Shown here one piece after another: positions 5,703 through 46,841 of a stretch of DNA of 64,000 nucleotides. The number at the start of each line of letters is the position of its first letter. Within the stretch, counting starts at the first letter, position 1. The notes under the pieces are model-generated. The model made no database searches, was not told the DNA's origin, and was given only the letters and a program-made list of their open reading frames with translations. The DNA is from Syntrophomonadales bacterium. GTDB lineage: Bacteria; Bacillota; Syntrophomonadia; Syntrophomonadales; DTU052. The stretch is from NCBI GenBank assembly GCA_050951725.1, contig JBMNJO010000001.1, positions 924,967-988,966 on the forward strand, in the 5' to 3' direction. A program made the position numbers and the translations under genes.

Positions 5703-6284
5703 TCACCTTCTTCCCTTAAAAAGCTCCATCCCGGTGAGGTTCTCCCACCATCTCAGGACTTCAGCCACTTTAAGGATGATCGAGTTGGCATTATTGATGG
5801 CAATACTCTTGCCTATGGTTTTTCCTCCTACCGTCACCGCCGCAATCAGACTGGTCATCGCTGCTCCCAGGAGTACAGTATCCACAACGGTAAACATGGA
5901 ATACCGGGCATAAAACGTATAAACTATAGAAGCGCCGATGGCTCCACTGAGGGTTCCGGCAATATCCCCCACCACATCGGCAGTTAAATTGGCTACCAGG
6001 TCCGCATTGCGGACAATCCTGACCGCCTGGCTGGCTCCGCGAATCTTCTTGGCAGCCATAGCGTTAAAAGGAACAACATCAGCCGCAGTAGCCGCAGTAC
6101 CGATGGCGTCGGAAACGATACCCGCCACCACCACCAGTCCCAGGGACAAAAAAGAAACAAAAAGATCCTGGACCGCATTGATGATCGACTCCAGGCCGAG
6201 GCTGATGATCAAGCCGGACATAAAGGTAAAAAACGTGATCCACAGGGCTGGTATAAATATGTTGCCTTCGGTGACCCTGGCCAA
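5703..6284 (-). CDS. oapA: OLE-associated membrane protein OapA
   Basis: 193 aa, multi-pass membrane protein with a TTG start, located immediately downstream of the OLE-like RNA and upstream of dxs. It contains a D-x-x-x-D motif (LTADVVGDIAG). Confidence 0.75.
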   Translation of the reverse strand: MARVTEGNIFIPALWITFFTFMSGLIISLGLESIINAVQDLFVSFLSLGLVVVAGIVSDAIGTAATAADVVPFNAMAAKKIRGASQAVRIVRNADLVANLTADVVGDIAGTLSGAIGASIVYTFYARYSMFTVVDTVLLGAAMTSLIAAVTVGGKTIGKSIAINNANSIILKVAEVLRWWENLTGMELFKGRR

Positions 6285-6299
6285 AAATACACTCCCTGA

Positions 6300-6890
6300 A
6301 TAAGTAGAATAAAGCGGAGGTTACCCCCTGAGTAAACGCTGTGACTTAGGTCCAGCAGGTTTTCCCGTTGAACATCCTGCTTGTCGCCAAGCAGGCGGTT
6401 TCCCTTTACGCTCAACCCGTGTTGTCGCCGTACACGAGGCTGGATTACCACTTAGTGCACACTTTAATCCCCAGAGGGTCGTGCCTGGCACACAGTCTAG
6501 GGGATTTCCCCGACAACCTCTACCAATTCTTAGCCTCTTTTGCAGCAGGGGTTTCAGAAGAGGGAAAACGGAACCGTGGCCATCGGTCTCCGTACCTCTA
6601 TAACTCATCCGCCCATACCACTCAAGGCAGGCTACACTGCACCCAGCTTCCTACCAGATGCAGGTTTTCCCGAAGGATTGCTCCTTCGAGCCTCCACGGG
6701 TGGGGGGTCAGTTCCCGCATGCCGTTGCAGGCTGCCCCGGCACCCTTAACTCCCAGCACCAACCCCCAACTGGGCGTTGAAAGCTGACACCAGAATCTTC
6801 ATCGATGTGCCCTATAACGGATTTTTAGGCCCGTCTTCAGAATTGGTGAGATTGACTAGAATACTGCAACCTCCACCCATAATTCTAATT
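6300..6890 (-). ncRNA. ole: OLE (ornate, large, extremophilic) RNA; ends approximate to about 40 nt
   Basis: About 590 nt with only short, mutually overlapping ORFs on both strands. The segment is GC-rich with dense local complementarity. It lies between a promoter and oapA, followed by dxs-tlyA-nadK-argR-recN, which is the known ole synteny. Confidence 0.75.
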
Positions 6891-11855: not shown

Positions 11856-12947
11856 TTAGTCTGCTCTTACCCTGCATAACAGTATGTTTTTCTCATTTTC
11901 ATAACTGTAATCGCAGCTCTCACTGCGGCTCCGGATAAGCACCTGTCCGAGTTGATCATCCTGGCTCCCGGTTTCAAGCGGATTTAATGGAATCCCGGCG
12001 CTCTCAACGACCAACTCCAGATTACCGCTCTTCTCGGAGTAAGCCAGACTGACTGTAATATCTGAGAAATCCTGCTGCAGGACCAGGATCTCTTCGACCA
12101 GCAAGAGTACATTCCCGCAGACCCGCCTGGATAGGAGGTGTTTTTCACAAAAAGCCTGGATTTCGCCGTTCATGCCATAAAGATCGTAGTCCTCACTGGT
12201 AATACGGCAGCGAAGAGTGCGCACCCGGTTGATGAAGGCTCGGGTTTTTTCTTTCTGTGGGTTTTCAAACAGCTCTTCGGGGGTACCCTCCTCATAGATA
12301 ATACCTTCATCCATATAAAACACGCGGGTAGCCAGATTCTGGGCAAACTCCATCTCGTGAGTGACAATAACCATGGTCATCCCTTCTTTGGCCAGGCGTC
12401 GGATAACCGCCAGCACCTCACTGACCATCGTCGGGTCCAGAGCTGAGGTGGGCTCATCAAAAAGCATGACCTCCGGCTCCATCGCCAGGCAGCGGGCAAT
12501 GGCTACCCTCTGCTTCTGTCCGCCGGAGAGCTCATCCGGAAAAGCATTGGCCTTTTCGGCCAACCCGACCATTTTCAGCAGTTCCATGGCTTTGATGCGC
12601 GCATCGGCCCGGCTCCGTCCCAGGAGCTTTATAGGCCCGATGGTCAGATTATCCATAACAGAAAGGTGAGCATACAGGTTGAACGACTGAAAAACCATGC
12701 CCATCTTCTGGCGTATCCTTGCCACATTGGTATCCTTGTCCAGCAAGGGAACCCCGTCAATGTATATTCTGCCGCCACTCGGTTTCTCCAGCAGGTTGAG
12801 GCAGCGCAAGAGAGTACTTTTCCCGGTGCCTGAAGGTCCAATAATCGCAACAATCTCACCTTTATGGATCACGCTGTTCACGTCCTTCAGCACTTCCAGA
12901 TCACCAAACCTCTTACTCAGGTGTTCAATCTTAATCATTGCTGACAC
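11856..12947 (-). CDS. amino-acid ABC transporter ATP-binding protein with a ~120-aa C-terminal extension
   Basis: Walker [10 protein letters not shown], signature LSGGQKQR, Walker [11 protein letters not shown] and H-loop VTHEM lie in residues 1-240. There are about 120 extra residues after the NBD. Confidence 0.85.
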
Positions 12948-15918
12948 CTCCTACCGGACGGTTCCTTTTCGGGTCAGTTTTTATGGCCAGATAATCCAAT
13001 ACCAGGCCCAGTAACCACGCCATGAGGAAGTAGAGTATGGCCACCATTATCAGGGGGAAGAACGCATCAAAGGTGCGGCTGCGGATAATATCACTGGCCT
13101 TAGTCAGGTCCTGTACTGCTATATAACCAACCACCGAGGTCATCTTCACCATAGAGATGAACTCACCCTTGTAAACAGGAAGCACCTGCCGTATGGCCTG
13201 CGGCATTATTATATACAGGAAGGTTTGCAGTTCGGTGAAGCCACCGGCAATGCCGGCTTCTCTCTGTCCCTTATCCACACTCTCGATGGCGGCGCGGAAC
13301 ATCTCGGAGACATAGGCCCCAAAGTTCATGGCAAAGGCAATCACTGCGGCAATAACCGGTTCAATGTTTACCGAGGCAAACACCACATAAAAGACTATCA
13401 TCAGAAGCACCAGCACCGGAATTCCCCGCAGGACGGAGATATAAACCCGGGCAAACCCCTGCAGGAACTTGTTCTTCGCCATCCGCATGTAGCAGATCAG
13501 GGCCCCCAAGAGGGTACCAAAAATTACCGCCAGGACAGATATCAGCGCGGTAACCTTCAAGCCATCTATTATGAGCTGATAGCGATCCTCCACAATAATA
13601 TTATTGTAAAAACTGTTGCCAACCCGTTGAAGAATAGATTCAGGTTTACCTGCTTCATTCTCGCCGGCATCCTGGCCGGCAATATTGTCCTTATGGGCAA
13701 TCACCGCAGTCTTGAACTCCAGATATTTGTCAGAGAAGTCTATGGTCTGAGCCCTCTCCTCTGTTATTGCGATACCATCGGCTATCATATCAACCTTGCC
13801 CGAGGCCAGGGCTGCGATCAAGGACCCGAACTCCATAGTCATTATCTCCAGAGGATACCCTTCATAGGCTGCAAACCGCTGGATTATCTCAATGTCAAAG
13901 CCGACATACTCATTGTTCATGACCGCCACATATGGAAGGTCACCTACCGCCACCCCCGCAACCAGTTTCTCACCGGTTCTCGGGTTATCAAACTTCGGCA
14001 TGACAGCCTTCTCTGGATCATTCTCCATCCAGCGCTCGTATACCTCATCATAGGTGCCATCGGCCCGTATCTCTTTTAGAAAGTTATTAAATTTCTCCCG
14101 TAACTCAGGGTTATTCTTGCTGAATCCAATTCCCAGGTCCTTGGTGAACACATCATCGGTTACGATCCCGATATCAGGATTGTTTTTTAGCAGTACCTTG
14201 GCTGAGGTATAATCGAGCATGGCCGCGTCGATCTTGTTGCTCTTAAGGGCCAGAATCATGTCTGAAGTACCTTCAAAGCGGTATATTTTGGCTTCAGGAT
14301 ACCTCTCGGCGATAAAGGCATCGAATATCGTCCCAACATATACCCCTACCCGTTTATCGGCTATATCATCAAGCTCTGACATCTTGTTGGAGTTACCCTG
14401 AGCTATGTTCTTTTTCAGAGTTAAGAAAGAAGCCCCTAAATCGTAATATGGATCGGAAAAAGCTATCTCTTTTTGGCGCTCCTCTGTCATCATCAAGCTG
14501 CTGGAGATCATATCAATCTTATTGGTGGACACTGCGGCGATTAAGCTGCCGAATTCCATATCCTGAAACACAAGTTCCTTGCCCAGATAGGCGGCAAACC
14601 TTTGGTCAAGTTCAGCATCGAACCCGATCAATTTTTTATCCTTGACCGCCATGAAGGGAAGTCCCGAATCACTGGCTATTCCAACAATCAGTTTCCCATT
14701 GTTACCGGAGTTCTCGATTACCGGCATTTCGGTAGATCCATCGGTCATCCAGCGTTTAACCATATCATCATAGGTGCCATCAGTTTTGATTTCCTGGAGG
14801 AAACTATTAAATTGTTCACGCAGGGCCTGGTTATCCTTGTTAAATCCCATCCCAATTGGAACTGAGTAGACCACATCACCGAGCATGGCCAGATCCGGGT
14901 TTTCTCGGATTAATCTCCGCAATAATTCATGGTTTATCAAGGCCGCATCAACTTTGTCGCTTTTGAGGGCAATTAACAAATCGGTAATATTCTTGTACTG
15001 CAATAGGCTGGCGTCGGGGTAATTAGCATTGGCATAGGTATCGTGGACCGTGCCTAATAGCACCCCGATACGTTTGTCTCTTATATCATCAACGGTCCCC
15101 AACTGAGCACTGCTGCTGTCAGTTGCAGATTGGTTGTCATCCCGGACCAGAGCGGCAATTCCCCCTGCGTAATAACTCTGGGTGAACAATACCTGTTTCG
15201 CCCTCTCTTCAGTAATGGATAATCCCGCGCCAATCATATCCACCTTGCCGGACACCAGAGCCGGGATCAGGCCGCCAAAATCCATGTTTACCACTTCGAG
15301 CTGCATATCCAGTTCCTGAGCTATGTAGGCAGCTAGTTCAATGTCAAAACCTACAATCTGGTGATTACCGTCCATGAAGGCCATTGGCTCGGTAACTGCC
15401 GCAGTTCCGAATCTTAAAGTGCCATTATCCCCGATGAGTTCAATATCCGGCATCGGAGCCGGCGCACCTCTTTCGGGAAACCAGCGCGTCATCATCTCGT
15501 CATAGGTACCGTTAACCCTTAGTTCATCGATGACTCTATCCGCCGCTGTTTTTATTTCCTGATCGTCAAGTCTCACCGCGAACCCGTAGTTGTCCTCAAC
15601 CAGAACTTCTGGCAATACTGTTACCCCTTCATTTTTACCAGCGATGTTTTGGAGGACGGGTTTATCATAGGCTGCAGCGTCTGCTTTGCCCTCTTTAACT
15701 GCTATAGCACAATCCAGAACCGTATTGTAATAAGTCAACTCGGCGTCTGGAAACCTCTCCCGCACAAACTGGTCCGCAATGGTACCGGTAGGCACAGCGA
15801 AGGTCTTGCCGCCCTGAAGCATCGATAAATCCGTTATAAATCCTTTCTCTCCACCGCATCCCAGCAGCGACAGAGCAAAACAGAGTATTAGGATGATCCC
15901 AACCACTTTATTTCGCAT
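12931..15918 (-). CDS. fused lipoprotein / multi-substrate-binding-domain / amino-acid ABC permease
   Basis: Start moved to [23 protein letters not shown] (AAGGAG RBS; lipobox LLGC). There are repeated PBP type-3 modules (GFDIEL...SGKVDMI...TEERAK) followed by a His/Glu/Gln/Arg-type permease TMD at the C-terminus. Confidence 0.8.
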
Positions 15919-16163
15919 AGCAACACTCCTTATCATTTGGCTCGGAAAATCTTTATCAGAAATGCACCTAAACGGCAATAAAGCTATCCTTGTTCATTCG
16001 ACAGGCGTTTAATATTCTCCTTCGCAAATGCCATTGAATGGTAAAGATAGTTCCATGATTAACCCACAACTTCTGGTTTGCCGCATAGCCTCACTAGCAG
16101 GAACTGGATGTACAGGTTGGGGACTGATAATCATGCCGCCAGACCTGGCGCTTTATGAGCAGT

Positions 16164-16190
16164 CAAAAAAACACCCGTTGACAGGTGTTG
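16164..16190 (-). terminator. intrinsic terminator closing the small-peptide transcription unit
   Basis: Minus-strand AACACCTGTCAACGGGTGTTTTTTTGA. Confidence 0.6.
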
Positions 16191-16401
16191 ATTGAAGAAC
16201 AAAAGATTATTCAGCAGATTCAAATGCGGTTGTTGGAGAGGTCAAAATCGACGAGTTCGCGATTTACATTTTGTTGTTGCCCGAGGTATATGCAAAAATA
16301 TAGGGATGGTACATGAATTTCGCCTTCCTACCATCCCCACATTCGTAAGGCTTTTTCCCGACATGGGTCTTAAGACGATATGTCAGCCCATTTAATAAAA
16401 A

Positions 16402-16539
16402 TCAGGACTTGTTACCGTCATATATACTGTTTACTCCGTATTTTCCTCCAACTTCCTTACCGCCTGATGCCTTTTCCAACTCAGTATCGGTAAGTATCAC
16501 AGTCCCGTTCTTGTCCTTGTCCTTATCCTTATCCGGCAC
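16402..16539 (-). CDS. 45-aa peptide with a double-glycine-type leader (candidate secreted or modified peptide)
   Basis: Below the ORF-track size cutoff. GTG start 5 nt after AAAGGGGTGA. Translation: MPDKDKDKDKNGTVILTDTELEKASGGKEVGGKYGVNSIYDGNKS. A TATAAT lies at 16582-16577. Confidence 0.5.
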   Translation of the reverse strand: MPDKDKDKDKNGTVILTDTELEKASGGKEVGGKYGVNSIYDGNKS

Positions 16540-16974
16540 TCTGATCACCCCTTTCGTTTAATCTCATCTTAATAAGATTATACGATAATTATTTGGAAGT
16601 AGCTCAAACGGCTTGAGAATAAAATACATTTCCGCCTTATAGATGGGGTTATTCCATATATTAATAGCATTGAAATGTTTACACCATATCGTCAATTCCG
16701 TCCAACTTAGTGAGAATATCTTTGGATGCAACTCTTGCACCGAATTCATTTATCTGGAAACAGGCGGGTTGAAAACGACTTGGCAAAAGAATCAGGTGAA
16801 AGAGTCTCCTTGACCCGTACCTGGAATGGTGCCAGAAAAACATTACAGACCCTTACAATCGGAAGACCTTTTGAGAGAATGGAATTCGGATATCTTCGAT
16901 GATATCGCCGTTCATCCGGTTGCCGTGTCGGGACCCTTCAGGCCCGAGGAACCAGAGGTTAATGATTTATAACA

Positions 16975-17622
16975 CTATCTTATATTCGTTACCACGCTTT
17001 CACCGTTTCTGATTTCTATATGGCAGGCAGTGGATCCGGCATCAGCCAGGTGCTGGTTGTGGGTGACCATGATCACCTGGCGGTCAAATGAATTGCACAC
17101 AGCATTCAGGAACTCCGCCACCTGACGTACATACTGTTCGGAAACGTGTTTGCCAGGTTCGTCCAGGATCAGGGGGCCGCCGAGGGGGGGACGGCTGGTT
17201 TCCAGAAGAGCTACACGCAAAGCCAGGGAAATAACATCAACAATTCCGCCTCCCCGAGAGTCACGCGGATCATTCTGTACCACCTGTTCTCCGCCATAGG
17301 TCGAGGAAACAGAAAATTCAGCCTCGGACCTCTCGGCGCGTTCCTCAAAATCAATATGAAAAACGTGGTCACTCTCAAATATCATCTTCAGGGCGTTGGT
17401 TACCAGCCGTTCCATGGTTTCCTTGGACTCACGGCGGGCATAATCGCCGGCCATGCTGAACAGCCTTGCCACCTGGCGCAGCGTTTCGACCTGGTTTTTT
17501 AGATCGGCGATCCGGGCCTCCTTCTGCTGTTTCTGGCCCTGGAGGCTGTCGCGCTGGCCTTTGCGCCGGTTGAGATCATCACGAAAACTAGCCACACTTT
17601 TTTTCAGGGCAGCGTGTTCCAA
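16975..17622 (-). CDS. Rad50/SbcC-like ATPase, C-terminal piece (signature motif, Walker B, H-loop)
   Basis: 215 aa with a TTG start 1 nt after the upstream stop. Coiled-coil N-terminus, then SRGGGIVDVISLALRVAL, LILDEPGKHV and VIMVTHNQ. Confidence 0.8.
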   Translation of the reverse strand: MEHAALKKSVASFRDDLNRRKGQRDSLQGQKQQKEARIADLKNQVETLRQVARLFSMAGDYARRESKETMERLVTNALKMIFESDHVFHIDFEERAERSEAEFSVSSTYGGEQVVQNDPRDSRGGGIVDVISLALRVALLETSRPPLGGPLILDEPGKHVSEQYVRQVAEFLNAVCNSFDRQVIMVTHNQHLADAGSTACHIEIRNGESVVTNIR

Positions 17623-17623
17623 A

Positions 17624-17890
17624 TCACCATCCCACCTTTTTCAGGTACTGCATGGGTATCAATTCCTCAATCCTTTTAATCAGGGAGTCCATTTCCATCC
17701 GAATCTCCCGGATACGGGCATCAAGTTCTTCGGGTTGGCAACCCAGGTCCTCTATACGCTGGTGGACCTGCTCCAGGTCTTTCTTCAGCACCTCGTATCG
17801 GGCCAAGGCCCGGTTCCGGTCATTGCTGGCGTCTTTTAATGCTTTCTCCAACTTCTTAATACGGGCATCGTAAGATTCTTTTTCCAACAA
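17624..17890 (-). CDS. 88-aa coiled-coil protein (middle piece of the split Rad50-like protein)
   Basis: Heptad-rich sequence (KKLEKALKDASNDRNRALARYEVLKKDLEQVHQRIEDL). TTG start after GTGGGGGTG. Confidence 0.6.
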   Translation of the reverse strand: MLEKESYDARIKKLEKALKDASNDRNRALARYEVLKKDLEQVHQRIEDLGCQPEELDARIREIRMEMDSLIKRIEELIPMQYLKKVGW

Positions 17891-18028
17891 CTACACCCCC
17901 ACTTTGGAAAGATGGTTATTATTTGTCGCCCCTTCCAAGGGGCTCTCTTCCTTTACTCCGAATTGTTTATGTTTATGATCACCTGCTGGATATTATATCC
18001 ACGAAAAACAGGTCATACATGGTTTTTT

Positions 18029-19360
18029 CTATAAGATCTCCCGGCGGATACGGGCAATGGTGTCCTGGTTTATCTCGGCGAAACAGGTGGGACATCTCCC
18101 GGCATTCTGCAGGAGGTCACCGTATTCGTCAGCAAGGGTTCGGGCCCGTAAATCGACCTTCTCCAGTTCCTGCTGGGCCTTCTTAACCCCCTCCTCAGCT
18201 TTATGCCAGTTGCCAATGATGTTCTGAAATAATCCCAGACGCGTTAAAAGCGTTAAGGAGTCCTGAATCGCTTGTTCCGCTCCGTCAAGATCTTCCAGTG
18301 ATGCAATTATGGCTGCATAATTCTTCATTTCCTCTGATTTCTGCTTTCGTTCTTTCTCCAGTCCTGCCAGTTCCTTGCGGGTGGCCTGTAACTCAAAGCC
18401 CTCCTGTCTCAGGGTCTTCATCTTATCCAGGTACTCCTCAGTCTTTTCCAGTCCCTGGGTAGAGTCGATAGTCAGGTCACAGATCTTCAGTTCTTCCAGG
18501 GTATGGTTTCGCTGTTGCTGCAGATTACGGATCTCCTCCAGTACGCGCATCAGCCTGGCTATCTCCGCCTGGTTTGTATAGGCCTCATCAAGATGATCGA
18601 GCTGCTCCAGGGCCTCCTTGATTTCTGTCATCTGCTGCCGGGTTTGTCTCAGGGTATTCCGTGCCTCTTCCAAGATCCTGACTTCCCGGTCCAGTTCCGA
18701 GAACCGCTTCAGCAACTGTTCCAGGCTTTCCAGCCGGGTCTCCTCCTCTTCCAGATTGGCATAGTTCTGAAGCTGCTGGTCCAGTAACTCGATATCACCC
18801 TCTAAACGGCTGATCTCGTGAAGTGCCTGGGAGGTATCCCTCAGAGTGTCGCGCTGGGCGGCGTCAATGATGTGCAGGTTGGCCATGCGGCCCAGGATCT
18901 TGGAACGGGTGGTACCTGACTCCTCGAGCAGGAAAGGGGCCTCCAACTGGCTGGCCAGGTTTATCTCCACCGCCCGGTCACGGTCGATGACCAGTTTGGA
19001 GATGTCCAGGGCCTTTCTTACCTCCAAGGGCACTTCCTTGTTGAACCGTTCAAAAACCAAGACCTCCTCGCCCGGGACCTCCAGGATATACCGGTTGACC
19101 CGGCTGCTCTCATCACGGATTCTCTCCACTGCCACCCCGTTGCTCAATTCCACCCGTACCTCGCACCGGGTCTCACCAACCCTGATAAAGCCGGTACCTC
19201 TAGGTTCATTATAAACCAACCAGCGCAGGGCGCGGACAATGGCAGACTTCCCCTGATCAGAGGGACCAACGATTATGTTAAGCCCCGGAGTGAACTCAAA
19301 GTCTGTTTCCCGGTGAGACTGGAAGTTCCTCAGTCGCAGTCTTTTTATGTAGGTCTTCAT
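18029..19360 (-). CDS. Rad50/SbcC-like ATPase, N-terminal piece (Walker A, coiled coil, zinc hook)
   Basis: 443 aa with Walker A GPSDQGKS, a Q-loop region QLEAPFLL, a long coiled coil, and a C-terminal hook GRCPTCFAEI. The ATGA start overlaps the mre11-like stop. Confidence 0.8.
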   Translation of the reverse strand: MKTYIKRLRLRNFQSHRETDFEFTPGLNIIVGPSDQGKSAIVRALRWLVYNEPRGTGFIRVGETRCEVRVELSNGVAVERIRDESSRVNRYILEVPGEEVLVFERFNKEVPLEVRKALDISKLVIDRDRAVEINLASQLEAPFLLEESGTTRSKILGRMANLHIIDAAQRDTLRDTSQALHEISRLEGDIELLDQQLQNYANLEEEETRLESLEQLLKRFSELDREVRILEEARNTLRQTRQQMTEIKEALEQLDHLDEAYTNQAEIARLMRVLEEIRNLQQQRNHTLEELKICDLTIDSTQGLEKTEEYLDKMKTLRQEGFELQATRKELAGLEKERKQKSEEMKNYAAIIASLEDLDGAEQAIQDSLTLLTRLGLFQNIIGNWHKAEEGVKKAQQELEKVDLRARTLADEYGDLLQNAGRCPTCFAEINQDTIARIRREIL

Positions 19361-45732: not shown

Positions 45733-45790
45733 GTTTGGATGCATAGATATTCGTCGCCTGACTTCGCATGATGGAACACCATCCAAAAGG
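45733..45790 (+). repeat. structured intergenic repeat, truncated copy E3 (one terminal module only)
   Basis: GTTTGGATGCATAGATATTCGTCGCCTGACTTCGCATGATGGAACACC matches most of the terminal ~50 nt of copy E2 (by-eye alignment). The similarity then stops. Confidence 0.5.
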
Positions 45791-45917
45791 GTTTCGCCCG
45801 AGGAATCACCGATGCCTCCCGTTTACAAAGAATAACATTATACAAACCGTGGAATTTTGGAATCCTATCCTTCAGGAACAGTTATCACTACATTCATGGT
45901 TACGGGAGGCAGAGGAC

Positions 45918-46841
45918 TTGAATATACGCAAATCTTGGCTCTTATTTGCAGCCTTGGGATTGATCATCGGTATTGCATATACGATGACCAGCTGGTTCCC
46001 TGGAACACCCCAATCCAAGCCATTTCAATCCGGAATGGAAGCAGGACCTGGTAAACACTATACCCTTGGCGACACTACCGGCCGGACTATCCTGCAAACC
46101 GGTTTCCCGGTTGCCGTGGGAGATGAATTCATTGATGAGGACAACACTCGTTACCGAATTTCCTCTTTGGATGGATGGAACGGAACCATGGAGCGGGTAA
46201 TTGAGAAGAAGCCAGCCAGAAAAGGTCTTACCGCCATTATCGAAGGGGCGCAGCCCGTTCAGGCCGAAGCAGAGCCGCCACCGAGGGTCGCTATCTACTG
46301 CACTCACTCCGACGAATCATATAAGCCTTCCCAGGGTAAGACATCAGAGCGCGGCGGTGGAGCGATATTCCGGGTGGGCTATGCTCTGGCTTCCAGCCTG
46401 GTCGATGATGGCATTACCGTTGACCAGAGTTTTGCGGCACACGATCCCCATGACATTAACGCCTATTCACGTTCCCGACGCACCCTGATGCAGCTCCTGA
46501 AGGATGGTCCCACAGCCGCCTTTGATGTGCACCGGGACTCAGCTCCGGCCGAGGCCTATCTCACCTACATCACTGGAGTTGAATCAGCCAAAGTAATGAT
46601 TGTAATCGGGCGACAGAATCCCAACATGAACGCCAACATGGCATTTGCTGAACGGGTTAAGAAACGTGCTGATGAAATGTACCCGGGCCTGATCCGCGGG
46701 ATATTCATTGGACGGGGCAGCTACAACCAGGACCTGTTCCCCCGGGCCCTGCTGTTCGAAATCGGCACTTCGGAGTTACCAGAGCAATACGCACAGAACG
46801 CCGCCCATTGCCTGGGTGACGTCCTCGGCACCCTACTATAA
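45918..46841 (+). CDS. spoIIP: stage II sporulation protein P
   Basis: The IYCTHSDESY motif, an N-terminal TM segment, and a SpoIIP-like C-terminal domain. The start is tentative (TTG after GGGAGG); the track ORF begins at 45768. Confidence 0.75.
   Translation: MNIRKSWLLFAALGLIIGIAYTMTSWFPGTPQSKPFQSGMEAGPGKHYTLGDTTGRTILQTGFPVAVGDEFIDEDNTRYRISSLDGWNGTMERVIEKKPARKGLTAIIEGAQPVQAEAEPPPRVAIYCTHSDESYKPSQGKTSERGGGAIFRVGYALASSLVDDGITVDQSFAAHDPHDINAYSRSRRTLMQLLKDGPTAAFDVHRDSAPAEAYLTYITGVESAKVMIVIGRQNPNMNANMAFAERVKKRADEMYPGLIRGIFIGRGSYNQDLFPRALLFEIGTSELPEQYAQNAAHCLGDVLGTLL

Follow-up and report, generated by a model that had tools for sequence, protein, structure and literature searches.

One or three copies of a putative double-glycine-leader micro-gene at a lineage-restricted locus of a Syntrophothermus-like species

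What does a 45-aa open reading frame lying alone in an intergenic spacer encode, and does the double-glycine-type leader that it seems to carry make it the precursor of a secreted peptide? This question arises from an earlier note on the window (the whole stretch of DNA analysed here, 64 kb), in which the frame was described as a stand-alone micro-gene and its leader compared with those of class II bacteriocins, signalling peptides and some RiPPs. The observation made in that note is confirmed, and its interpretation is partly supported. The most informative feature of the locus, which is beyond the view of that earlier reader, is a copy-number polymorphism of one versus three cassettes. Tentatively, we read the window micro-gene as the single-copy form of a strain-variable array (one or three micro-genes) of double-glycine-leader, exported signal-type peptides.

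Gene anatomy of the micro-gene

The elements of the locus, all on the minus strand, are listed below in window coordinates. The cassettes to which the list refers are the single copy of the window and its tandem counterparts in a near-identical strain (see the next section).

16577..16607, minus strand: putative promoter, read from the sequence (TATAAT at 16582-16577 and a -35-like TTGAGC at 16607-16602, spacer of 19 nt)
16546..16554, minus strand: Shine-Dalgarno sequence AAAGGGGTG, with 8 nt from its GGGG to the GTG start
16402..16539, minus strand: precursor peptide CDS of 45 aa, GTG start and TGA stop, product (M)PDKDKDKDKNGTVILTDTELEKASGGKEVGGKYGVNSIYDGNKS
16459..16539, minus strand: leader of 27 codons, M-PDKDKDKDKNGTVI-LTDTELEKASGG, with 93-96% DNA identity between cassettes
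16533-16510, minus strand: hexanucleotide repeat (GAYAAG)4 inside the leader
16460..16494, minus strand: 35-nt block identical in all cassettes, coding for L(-12)TDTELEKASGG(-1)
16405..16458, minus strand: core of 18 codons, KEVGGKYGVNSIYDGNKS, Cys-free, GRAVY -1.03, net charge about +1, 1,915 Da
16363..16391, minus strand: small post-stop hairpin (AUGGG...CCCAU), with an equivalent in the 3' region of all cassettes according to folding
16296..16344, minus strand: strong 16-bp hairpin followed by a U-rich stretch, dG -23.4 kcal/mol, z -4.4
16264..16314, minus strand: "second tiny ORF" MYHPYIFAYTSGNNKM of 16 aa, judged not to be a gene
16165..16189, minus strand: intrinsic terminator found by the terminator scan, with an 8-bp stem AACACCTG/CGGGTGTT followed by T7
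16104..16741, minus strand: lineage-specific block (cassette, 3' region and terminator) without blastn counterpart in the sister species

The TATAAT, the strong Shine-Dalgarno sequence, the GTG start, the CDS at 16539-16402 and the terminator are thus all found where they had been described or close by, in a spacer that is AT-rich as claimed (38-43% GC vs. 51% in the whole window). A consensus promoter scan around the micro-gene returned 0 sites, a -35 box at a spacing of 16-18 nt being not found; because of its 19-nt spacing, the TATAAT/TTGAGC pair is not called by such a scan. The TTGAGC at 16607-16602 is the best candidate for a -35 box, and the promoter block TTGAGCT.CTT.C.AATA.TTATCGTATAATCT is kept in the three cassettes of contig L008. 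The Shine-Dalgarno sequence and its distance to the start are also kept in all cassettes, in the form AAAGGAGTG in cassettes 2 and 3. With promoter, Shine-Dalgarno sequence and GTG retained by the paralogues of the sister strain, the description of a stand-alone micro-gene holds.

Gene calls exist for the exact 45-aa product on 7 Logan contigs and for a 48-aa version on 14 JGI contigs, where the gene callers chose an upstream GTG at 16548. We prefer the 45-aa model because this upstream GTG falls within the Shine-Dalgarno sequence.

Downstream of the stop codon, the stem of the small hairpin is kept in cassettes 1, 2 and 3, with a one-sided U-G to U-A change. The strong hairpin at 16344-16296 was not equalled by any of 200 shuffled sequences and probably acts, for the last cassette, either as a first terminator or as a 3' structure that stabilises the transcript; at the homologous position, cassettes 1 and 2 display just a 4-bp GGGG/CCCU stem followed by TTTT. 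The terminator at 16189-16165 is the sole terminator-like site between 15800 and 17100 and is common to the one- and three-cassette forms. The second tiny ORF, which had been proposed around 16310-16260 as a much weaker candidate, actually extends from 16314 to 16264. Its Shine-Dalgarno sequence (GGAAGG) and AUG are buried in the apical part of the strong hairpin and its codons 2-6 lie in the 3' arm; no comparative support was found for it, and the proposal does not stand. Nor was any supported ORF for a co-transcribed immunity gene found 3' of the peptide gene, the 16-aa ORF having no transmembrane segment.

Copy number and mosaic conservation of the cassettes

In a near-identical strain (contigs L008 and L010), three tandem cassettes occupy the same site as the single copy of the window. 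Each of the three has its own TATAAT, Shine-Dalgarno sequence and GTG, their ORFs are all open, and all leaders end in LTDTELEKASGG. The sole indel between these leaders is in frame and corresponds to one DK unit (6 nt). Conservation between cassettes is mosaic: identity is high in the leader, falls to 39-48% in the core and rises again to 69-93% in the 3' region. The divergence opens right past the GGC-GGN codons (Gly-Gly) and closes at the stop codon, and the contrast between conserved and variable parts is highly significant (Fisher test, P = 1.8e-10, 2.4e-5 and 1.0e-7). As the boundary falls on an in-frame Gly-Gly codon pair, with the frame defined by Shine-Dalgarno sequence and GTG, an origin as RNA only or as junk DNA gives no reason for it.

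The three cores are QYIERPIEDI in cassette 1, LHISKPQPKRPE in cassette 2 and KEVGGKYGVNSIYDGNKS in cassette 3. They differ in length (10, 12 and 18 aa), predicted mass (1,275, 1,430 and 1,915 Da), GRAVY (-0.79, -1.65 and -1.03) and net charge (-2, +2 and +1), and none displays an amphipathic or hydrophobic segment. The window core, correctly described earlier as an 18-aa Cys-free sequence, aligns with those of cassettes 1 and 2 at an identity that is about random, and we judged them to be non-homologous. None of the three cores contains Cys, and that of cassette 1 also lacks Ser and Thr.

The window sequence is identical to cassette 1 of contig L008 down to position 16460 and identical to cassette 3 from position 16459 onward. 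By its sequence, the window copy is therefore the leader of cassette 1 joined to the core of cassette 3. At least 19 contigs, originating from many samples, contain the single-cassette allele, which thus persists in natural populations; one sample contains both the one- and three-cassette forms. Most strains lack cassettes 1 and 2, which are therefore dispensable. A collapse of repeats during assembly was considered for the single-cassette form and rejected: many independent assemblies cross the junction and extend into unique sequence on either side of it, and reads must span more than 35 nt of identical sequence there.

The synonymous-biased substitution that the earlier note expected of a conserved ORF is absent. 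Among the seven leader differences between cassettes, six are non-synonymous, and the population copies of the single-cassette allele are 100% identical, so that dN/dS cannot be obtained from population data. No signal of purifying selection was found in either set.

The end of the leader displays the features of a double-glycine-type signal. The Gly-Gly pair at -2/-1 (EKAS-G-G, then KEVGG in the window copy) is unchanged in the four cassette versions, Leu-12 and Leu-7 are invariant, Glu-8 is also present, and the invariant block begins exactly at -12. The protease LahT150 requires just the last 13 residues of a leader, with hydrophobic residues at -4, -7 and -12 and a Gly-Gly pair (PMC6363468). 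At -4, Val, Leu or Ile is usual, Thr is tolerated and charged residues abolish cleavage (PMC6363468); the micro-gene leader has an Ala at this position, small and non-polar, unlike the usual residues and absent from the leader variants assayed with LahT150 in that study. The invariant block from -12 to -1 coincides with the region recognised by C39 double-glycine proteases and the cores are swapped exactly at Gly-Gly, and the leader-core architecture proposed for this peptide is thereby upheld. We infer that the 35-nt block may serve both as a protease-recognition motif and as a recombination crossover zone. A strict version of the motif (L-x3-E-L-x2-[AVILMT]-x-G-G), defined post hoc with the peptide already seen, occurs in 1 of the 620 short ORFs of the window, which is the micro-gene ORF itself, and is absent from both control sets (4,051 short ORFs of other loci, covering 573 kb, and 18,795 of shuffled sequences). 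A loose version is common (about 1% of short ORFs).

Distribution and genomic neighbourhood

Homology detected by blastn with the sister-species sequences L011 and L013 ends at about 16742/16721 and restarts at about 16103/16034; a MAFFT alignment suggested residual similarity to the sister species down to about 16640. At the syntenic site, the ORF is absent from genomes in which the neighbouring gene is 81-94% identical, so the conservation in relatives that the earlier note had looked to is lacking. Neither tblastn nor a motif scan detected a homologous or analogous double-glycine ORF in the syntenic intergenic regions of nine related genomes. A phage or plasmid origin of the 642-bp block was also considered, and blastn gave no match to support it.

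Searches at larger scale gave the same picture. The window peptide had no match in Pfam (E up to 1) or NCBIfam (E up to 10), including the ComC, Bacteriocin_IIc, NHLP and Nif11 models, and its proposed affiliation to bacteriocin or RiPP precursors thus finds no curated model. The leader of cassette 1 matched the leader part of Pfam Lactococcin (PF04369) below threshold (E = 0.055; 14.1 bits for a cut-off of 23.1). A word-indexed homology search recovered only four near-identical peptides from the same species, and an exhaustive HMMER profile search of 1.84 billion representative proteins found no homologue beyond the peptides of this species; three repeat proteins that it returned were spurious, being unrelated and matching through internal repeats. 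No homologue of the peptide family was found outside one species among 5.8 billion clustered proteins. Peptide-alignment scans of GTDB genome, JGI metagenome and viral contigs gave none, the low-complexity DKDKDK pattern saturating the search (0 of 600 stretches confirmed), and nothing was found for the peptide in the PDB or with PADLOC. A degenerate back-translation of LTDTELEKASGG had 0 matches in a metagenome contig collection, which implies that this collection does not include the JGI samples carrying the locus. As far as these searches reach, the peptide family is confined to one uncultured thermophilic Syntrophothermus-like species (Syntrophomonadaceae) of anaerobic-digester-type metagenomes.

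We then surveyed the neighbourhood with Pfam scans of every ORF of 150 aa or more in the window (64 kb) and with gene tables for 10 kb past each edge (about 84 kb in total). Within this region, no C39/ABC exporter (Peptidase_C39 + ABC_membrane + ABC_tran) and no maturase (LanM/LanB, radical-SAM or YcaO) was found, in agreement with the earlier description of an orphan precursor. No histidine kinase was found either, the only response regulator being Spo0A, within 10 kb past the low-coordinate edge of the window, and the window and the 10 kb beyond each edge contain no immunity gene. An ABC importer operon (polar amino acid) lies downstream on the same strand; it starts at about 15922, with the terminator in between, and the binding domains of this transporter belong to the Lys/Arg/Orn-Gln-Asp family. 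In the sister species, this operon and its 5' region, conserved from about 16103, are retained but no cassette is present. A small gene adjoining the cassette locus is decayed.

Competing explanations and possible role of the peptides

Several other explanations of the locus can be confronted with these data. It may be functionless young lineage-specific DNA, i.e. a duplicated intergenic segment with a chance ORF and Gly-Gly motif that then underwent neutral losses of cassettes. The absence of the block from the sister species and from all databases searched, the mostly non-synonymous leader substitutions, the loss of two of the three cassettes in most strains, the AT-richness of the locus and the decay of the adjacent small gene all agree with this explanation. 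We nevertheless consider it unlikely: uniform neutral decay cannot give leaders of 93-96% identity and similar 3' regions around unalignable cores, all three copies preserve an open frame, its GTG and the Shine-Dalgarno sequence at an unchanged distance, the only indel being in frame, and the strict leader motif does not occur in about 23,000 control ORFs. Still less probable is a functional product at the RNA level, each cassette encoding a regulatory or dual-function RNA of about 270-400 nt that ends at the hairpin and terminator, with an incidental or secondary ORF. The 3' region of the window copy is significantly structured (z -2.5 over 245 nt, in addition to the strong hairpin) and all cassettes retain the small post-stop hairpin; synonymous variation is absent from the 35-nt block, and the 5' part contains about five GGA/AAGGA motifs. 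However, folding of the 3' region in cassettes 1 and 2 does not exceed that of shuffled sequences (z +0.1 to +0.3), the conserved/variable boundary is a codon boundary after Gly-Gly, the variable part stops at the stop codon, and a strong Shine-Dalgarno sequence and start codon are conserved. Moreover, an Rfam 15 scan of positions 15500-17500 (E up to 10) matched no family, the best scores of 13-20 bits against gathering thresholds of 47-60 (E >= 0.65) being at chance level.

If the product is a peptide, it could still be a small cytoplasmic protein, neither cut at Gly-Gly nor exported, whose N-terminal 27 residues are functional (e.g. as a disordered binding module) and whose tails are unimportant. 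The leader is highly charged and hydrophilic (GRAVY -1.23), the N-terminus is the conserved part, the tails are exchangeable and dispensable, and neither exporter nor protease is encoded in the surrounding 84 kb or so. We doubt this explanation, since the conserved block is the C39 window from -12 to -1 with its Leu-12, Leu-7 and terminal Gly-Gly, and since a 27-residue module without detectable fold or homologue would be required. A distant exporter would have precedents, as the ComC and ProcA precursor genes lie far from their exporters (ComAB and ProcT, respectively). Modification of the cores before cleavage at Gly-Gly, in the manner of prochlorosins and by a maturase (radical-SAM or other) encoded elsewhere, appears improbable. 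One conserved leader with several hypervariable tandem cores is a signature of combinatorial RiPP families, and Gly-Gly leaders also occur in class II lanthipeptides and in NHLP/Nif11 peptides, further substrates of LahT150. Yet lanthionine chemistry is impossible for cores without Cys, one of them also without Ser and Thr; in addition, the three cores have no common residue pattern for one enzyme, no maturase was found in the 84 kb, and neither NCBIfam nor Pfam has a precursor model that the peptides match. Finally, the ORF may be a cis-regulatory leader peptide, in which translation of the Asp/Lys codons controls read-through of the terminator at 16189-16165 into the ABC importer operon. Its position directly upstream of the operon and on the same strand, with the terminator between them, is suggestive, as are the four DK codon pairs and the substrate family of the transporter. 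This is by far the least probable explanation, and we rejected attenuation control of the operon: more than 210 nt separate the stop codon from the terminator, without any overlapping alternative pairing, sister species have the operon and its 5' region without any cassette, and such a device gives no reason for three cassettes with promoters of their own and exchanged C-termini.

Returning to the array of exported signal-type peptides, the cassette products are probably a new, very narrowly distributed family of secreted peptides. We infer the transcription, translation, cleavage, export and biological role of the peptide as follows. Each cassette, with its own promoter, Shine-Dalgarno sequence and GTG, would produce a precursor made of an acidic leader of 25-27 aa, ending in an invariant double-glycine-type motif (L-12, E-8, L-7, A-4, G-2 and G-1), and a core of 10-18 aa. 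After translation of the 45-aa precursor, leader residues -12 to -4 would form a short helix and dock into the papain-like C39 peptidase domain of an AMS/PCAT-type ABC exporter encoded elsewhere in the genome. The precursor would then be cut after Gly27 and the linear 18-aa peptide KEVGGKYGVNSIYDGNKS exported. Homologous recombination inside the 35-nt identical leader block would add or delete cassettes.

A secreted signal-type peptide is our best guess for the role of the cores, which would act as diffusible signal or competition peptides following the logic of ComC/BlpC-like pheromones. The ComC/CSP, BlpC and plantaricin A-type pheromones (with AMS/PCAT exporters, e.g. ComAB) likewise have short precursors with a Gly-Gly leader of about 20-27 aa, hydrophobic residues at -7/-12 and Glu at -8, and a small, linear, unmodified mature peptide (18 aa predicted for the micro-gene, 17 aa for CSP). 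Their precursor genes need not adjoin the exporter, and their mature part varies among strains while the leader is conserved. However, the micro-gene peptide has no sequence homology to them and no match to Pfam ComC or related models, and unlike ComCDE or BlpCHR systems it has no adjacent histidine kinase or LytTR regulator (about 84 kb). It also varies by tandem copy number in one locus rather than by allelic pherotypes, its cores are not cationic-amphiphilic, and its N-terminal (DK)n repeat is unusual.

Other double-glycine systems show partial likeness. Class II bacteriocins such as lactococcins A and B (PF04369) share a double-glycine leader, and tandem small genes are typical of their loci. 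However, the match of cassette 1 is sub-threshold, the cassette cores are hydrophilic and no immunity gene or transporter is nearby. Mature unmodified class II bacteriocins typically have about 25-60 aa, are cationic and contain an amphiphilic or hydrophobic membrane-active segment. Cores of 10-18 aa with GRAVY values of -0.79 to -1.65 are too short and too hydrophilic for the class II bacteriocin that had been suggested; as they are short, polar and without amphipathic or hydrophobic segment, a diffusible signal or competition peptide is favoured over a pore-forming bacteriocin. Prochlorosins (ProcA) and NHLP/Nif11 peptides also combine paralogous precursors, near-identical Gly-Gly leaders and unrelated cores, their precursor genes can be remote from the processing and export genes, and their leaders are cut by C39 domains (LahT150). 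These leaders nevertheless have about 60-80 aa and are homologues of Nif11 or nitrile hydratase, whereas the micro-gene leader has 27 aa and matches neither, and no LanM-type enzyme was seen in the 84 kb around the micro-gene. In Clostridium (Acetivibrio) thermocellum, the peptidase-ABC transporter PCAT1 cleaves a double-glycine signal of its cargo CtA (PMC6959990). Both cases involve a thermophilic anaerobic Firmicute and a double-glycine cargo of unknown function, but the CtA gene adjoins its transporter, whereas the micro-gene encodes a tiny and polymorphic putative cargo, with no such transporter detected within about 84 kb. CtA, with about 90 aa, is also much larger than the micro-gene peptide.

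A bolder extension, which we regard as a long shot, is that this obligately syntrophic thermophile has a peptide repertoire driven by recombination. The 35-nt block would be at once an export/cleavage signal and the crossover site that reshuffles the cores, and co-existing digester strains would secrete different peptide sets, forming a strain-level recognition or partner-communication code (with kin and possibly with methanogen partners) in a group for which peptide signalling is not known.

The locus has modest practical value; synthesis and testing of the three predicted peptides (1.3-1.9 kDa) would be easy, and their function is a hypothesis. If our reading is true, the locus would represent an uncatalogued family of double-glycine-leader peptides, missed by Pfam, NCBIfam and homology searches over billions of proteins. 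Syntrophic fatty-acid oxidisers play a key role in thermophilic biogas communities but are hard to culture; our literature search found no peptide communication or competition system described in them; the cassettes would offer an entry point to such systems. Their one-versus-three polymorphism would then be a compact natural example of leader-guided recombination remodelling a secreted-peptide repertoire.

Anatomy and surroundings of the micro-gene

The TATAAT box, Shine-Dalgarno sequence (SD), GTG start, CDS and terminator claimed in the earlier note are all present on the minus strand, at or near the positions it had assigned. The hairpins of the 3' region are listed with them.

Features of the micro-gene locus (window coordinates)
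16582-16577, minus strand: TATAAT box, read in the sequence
16554-16546, minus strand: SD AAAGGGGTG, read in the sequence
16539, minus strand: GTG start, opening a 45-codon ORF
16404-16402, minus strand: TGA stop, closing this ORF
16391-16363, minus strand: small post-stop hairpin, present in all cassettes
16344-16296, minus strand: strong 16-bp hairpin of the last cassette (dG -23.4 kcal/mol, z -4.4)
16189-16165, minus strand: terminator-like site, the only one in the intergenic region

The product, (M)PDKDKDKDKNGTVILTDTELEKASGG-KEVGGKYGVNSIYDGNKS, agrees exactly with the peptide first read. The JGI gene callers used a GTG at 16548; as this codon falls inside the SD, the 45-aa model, also called on Logan contigs, was preferred. 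The putative promoter is weak: no -35 hexamer lies 16-18 nt from the TATAAT (the best candidate, TTGAGC, has a spacing of 19 nt) and a promoter scan returned 0 sites. The spacer has 38-43% GC vs. 51% for the whole window. The strong hairpin is followed by a U-rich stretch, then by the canonical terminator. The second tiny ORF of the earlier note does exist (16314-16264), but it is caught up in the strong hairpin, with its SD and AUG in the apical part and the five codons that follow in the 3' arm. Given this placement and the absence of comparative support, it was rejected as a gene.

Partner genes were searched by Pfam scans of every window ORF of at least 150 aa and in gene tables extending 10 kb past each edge (about 84 kb). 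The surrounding genes are housekeeping and sporulation genes, including dxs, nadK, argR, recN, spoIVB, spo0A, an EF-G-like gene and signal peptidase I, as well as glycogen enzymes, CoA transferases, LonC, a PBP, corA, dnaB and others. Within this span, neither a Peptidase_C39 nor a peptidase-bearing ABC exporter was found, and likewise no enzyme of the radical-SAM, LanM or YcaO type and no histidine kinase; over it, the peptide is thus indeed an orphan precursor, as had been proposed.

The 215-aa gene adjoining the micro-gene belongs to a NurA-HerA-Mre11-Rad50 cluster and encodes the C-terminal ATPase portion of a Rad50-like protein that is split. It shares 94% identity with its counterpart in Syntrophothermus sp. 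UBA1445 (MAG) and 81-86% with those of other Syntrophomonadaceae MAGs, which assigns the window to an uncultured Syntrophothermus-like bacterium. The Rad50-like ATPase is encoded as three separate ORFs.

Rad50-like ORFs (all within window 16975-19360)
ORF 1, minus strand: 443 aa, N-terminal ATPase and coiled coil; a CxxC zinc-hook-like motif lies close to its C-terminus, which reads ...CPTCFAEINQDTIARIRREIL
ORF 2, minus strand: 87-88-aa coiled-coil piece
ORF 3, minus strand: 215 aa, coiled coil and C-terminal ATPase

Full-length matches of the 215-aa piece in Syntrophomonadaceae, Tumebacillus and Tissierellia genomes show that the split is ancient and no frameshift artefact. Downstream of the micro-gene, on the same strand, lies an unusually large ABC importer component (12931-15978, minus strand; 1,015 aa, called as 995-1,001 aa elsewhere), which fuses four tandem polar-amino-acid binding domains (family-3 solute-binding) to a permease and is followed by its ATPase. 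This lineage also carries spoIVB, spo0A and spoIIP (window 45768-46841; contig L060 13035-15358, which lies about 3-5 kb past the low-coordinate edge of the window). The sporulation genes are set in a dxs-nadK-argR-recN-spoIVB-spo0A order, of the kind known from Bacillus and Clostridium.

A shared leader with exchangeable cores

Gene calls of the exact 45-aa peptide occur on 7 Logan contigs, those of its 48-aa version on 14 JGI contigs, all with identical gene order. Homology searches matched only four peptides, all from the same species, two of which have a common leader and different C-termini. At the same intergenic site, contigs L008/L009 (38 kb) and L010 of a near-identical strain carry three tandem cassettes, each with its own TATAAT, SD, GTG and leader.

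Cassette products on L008/L010
Cassette 1: ...LTDTELEKASGG-QYIERPIEDI
Cassette 2: ...LTDTELEKASGG-LHISKPQPKRPE
Cassette 3: ...LTDTELEKASGG-KEVGGKYGVNSIYDGNKS

In DNA alignments between cassettes, identity is 93-96% in the leader, including a 35-nt block with zero differences, and 69-93% in the 3' region, whereas the cores (39-48%) are effectively unalignable. Similarity breaks directly after the GGC-GGN codons and resumes at the stop codon (flank vs. core, Fisher p = 1.8e-10, 2.4e-5 and 1.0e-7 for the three pairs). The sole leader indel keeps the frame, being 6 nt long and equal to one Asp-Lys unit. Of the seven differences between the leaders of the cassettes, six alter the amino acid; population copies are identical.

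The window matches cassette 1 down to 16460 and cassette 3 from 16459 on, with full identity. The window allele is therefore a deletion recombinant, its crossover lying in the identical leader block. One cassette is the commoner state (at least 19 contigs, many samples); three cassettes were seen in two JGI samples, one of which also has the single form. A repeat-collapse artefact was rejected for the single form, because independent assemblies cross the junction into unique sequence at either end.

At the point corresponding to the strong hairpin, cassettes 1 and 2 have a mere 4-bp stem and TTTT; where three copies are present, much of the transcription probably continues as far as the shared terminators. 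The 5' UTRs of cassettes 2 and 3 (L008 10250-10280 and 10545-10575) have 19-21 nt inserted between the -10 box and the SD, an insertion absent from cassette 1 and the window; in cassette 2 it reads GGTTTCGTCATCTGGAAAACC and can form a 6-bp hairpin. The cassettes may therefore differ in expression or regulation. The cassette 1 ORF (L008 10121-10135) ends at a TAA three codons ahead of the TAACCCCCGATT context in which cassette 2 stops (ATA TAA GGA CAA AAA TAA CCC); a nonsense mutation may have truncated the cassette 1 core from QYIERPIEDIxGQK to QYIERPIEDI.

A family confined to one species

No relatives of the peptide were found in one genome per GTDB species, in viral contigs, among PDB sequences or by PADLOC, nor, with an exact degenerate pattern for LTDTELEKASGG included, in JGI metagenome contigs (a collection holding none of the JGI samples that carry the locus). 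Among 1.84 billion representatives, searched exhaustively with an HMMER profile, the only hits besides the peptides already known were repeat proteins, rejected as spurious. Conservation in related genomes, a check suggested in the earlier note, was not observed: in the closest species, homology at the syntenic site is lost near window position 16742 and regained near 16103, and the DNA in between carries no double-glycine ORF, whether homologous or analogous. Neither phages nor plasmids showed similarity to the 642-bp block. Together, these results mark the cassette as a recent, lineage-specific acquisition or invention.

A small gene (16643-16972, plus strand) converges on the Rad50-like gene. 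Its sister-species counterparts (L011 6384-6665, minus strand; L013 about 6240-6520) are intact; they have 93 aa, a TTG start behind an AAGGAGG SD, and nothing in Pfam matches them. The copies in the window and in every same-species contig are broken up into three reading frames (EFIYLETGG / VENDLAKESGERV / ...LREWNSDIFDDIAVHPVAVSGPFRPEEP), with the SD and upstream region replaced at the start of the cassette block; a gene for the final 48 aa is still annotated by JGI. The broken form appears to be a pseudogene that the cassette insertion created, or that was tolerated once the insertion had taken place. Six SNPs within 54 nt (16729, 16728, 16719, 16717, 16711 and 16676) set four contigs (L001, L007, L051 and L056) apart from the window, to which they are 100% identical over the remainder of a 1.1-kb stretch. 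The SNPs fall inside the decayed gene, a short way upstream of the cassette promoter, and may mark a small recombination tract.

Leader type and possible function

For the peptidase LahT150, the last 13 leader residues are enough for recognition, and a two-turn helix is formed by residues -4 to -11. Cleavage is lost or impaired when a charged residue is placed at -4 or -7 and with most substitutions at -12; the conserved Glu residues are dispensable (PMC6363468). The invariant block of the cassettes spans exactly -12 to -1, with Leu at -12, Glu at -8, Leu at -7 and Gly-Gly at -2/-1; position -13, just beyond it, is variable (Ile, Lys, Met). The double-glycine-type leader claimed earlier is thus borne out, with an Ala at -4 that is non-polar but atypical. 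Among the 620 short ORFs of the window, the micro-gene alone carries a strict positional version of this motif, as do 0 of 4,051 from 573 kb of other loci and 0 of 18,795 from shuffles; written after the peptide had been seen, it is a plausibility check and no test. A loose version, found in about 1% of short ORFs, is meaningless by itself. The window peptide has no match in Pfam or NCBIfam, and the cassette 1 leader matched the leader part of Pfam Lactococcin below threshold (E = 0.055; 14.1 bits, cut-off 23.1).

A family of double-glycine-leader precursor peptides best explains the anatomy and the leader/core mosaic. Cleavage of the precursors after Gly27 and export of the peptides would fall to a C39-type peptidase-ABC exporter whose gene lies elsewhere. 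The cores (10-18 aa) are strongly hydrophilic (GRAVY -0.8 to -1.65), Cys-free and without common pattern, which disfavours both pore-forming class II bacteriocins and lanthipeptide or sactipeptide chemistry; small unmodified signal-type peptides fit them best.

That the peptide is actually secreted is quite possible, but we hold this reading tentatively. Against it count the absence of an exporter within about 84 kb, of conservation beyond one species and of a purifying-selection signal, together with the atypical -4 residue, the weak promoter and the dispensability of two cassettes. The remaining probability is spread over five rivals: a small non-exported protein, young DNA without function, a modified RiPP, a function at the RNA level and attenuation of the ABC operon. 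The finding is readily testable and unsurprising in kind. If real, the family would be a new, extremely narrow member among the well-known double-glycine-leader peptides, its added interest being leader-mediated cassette polymorphism in a syntroph.
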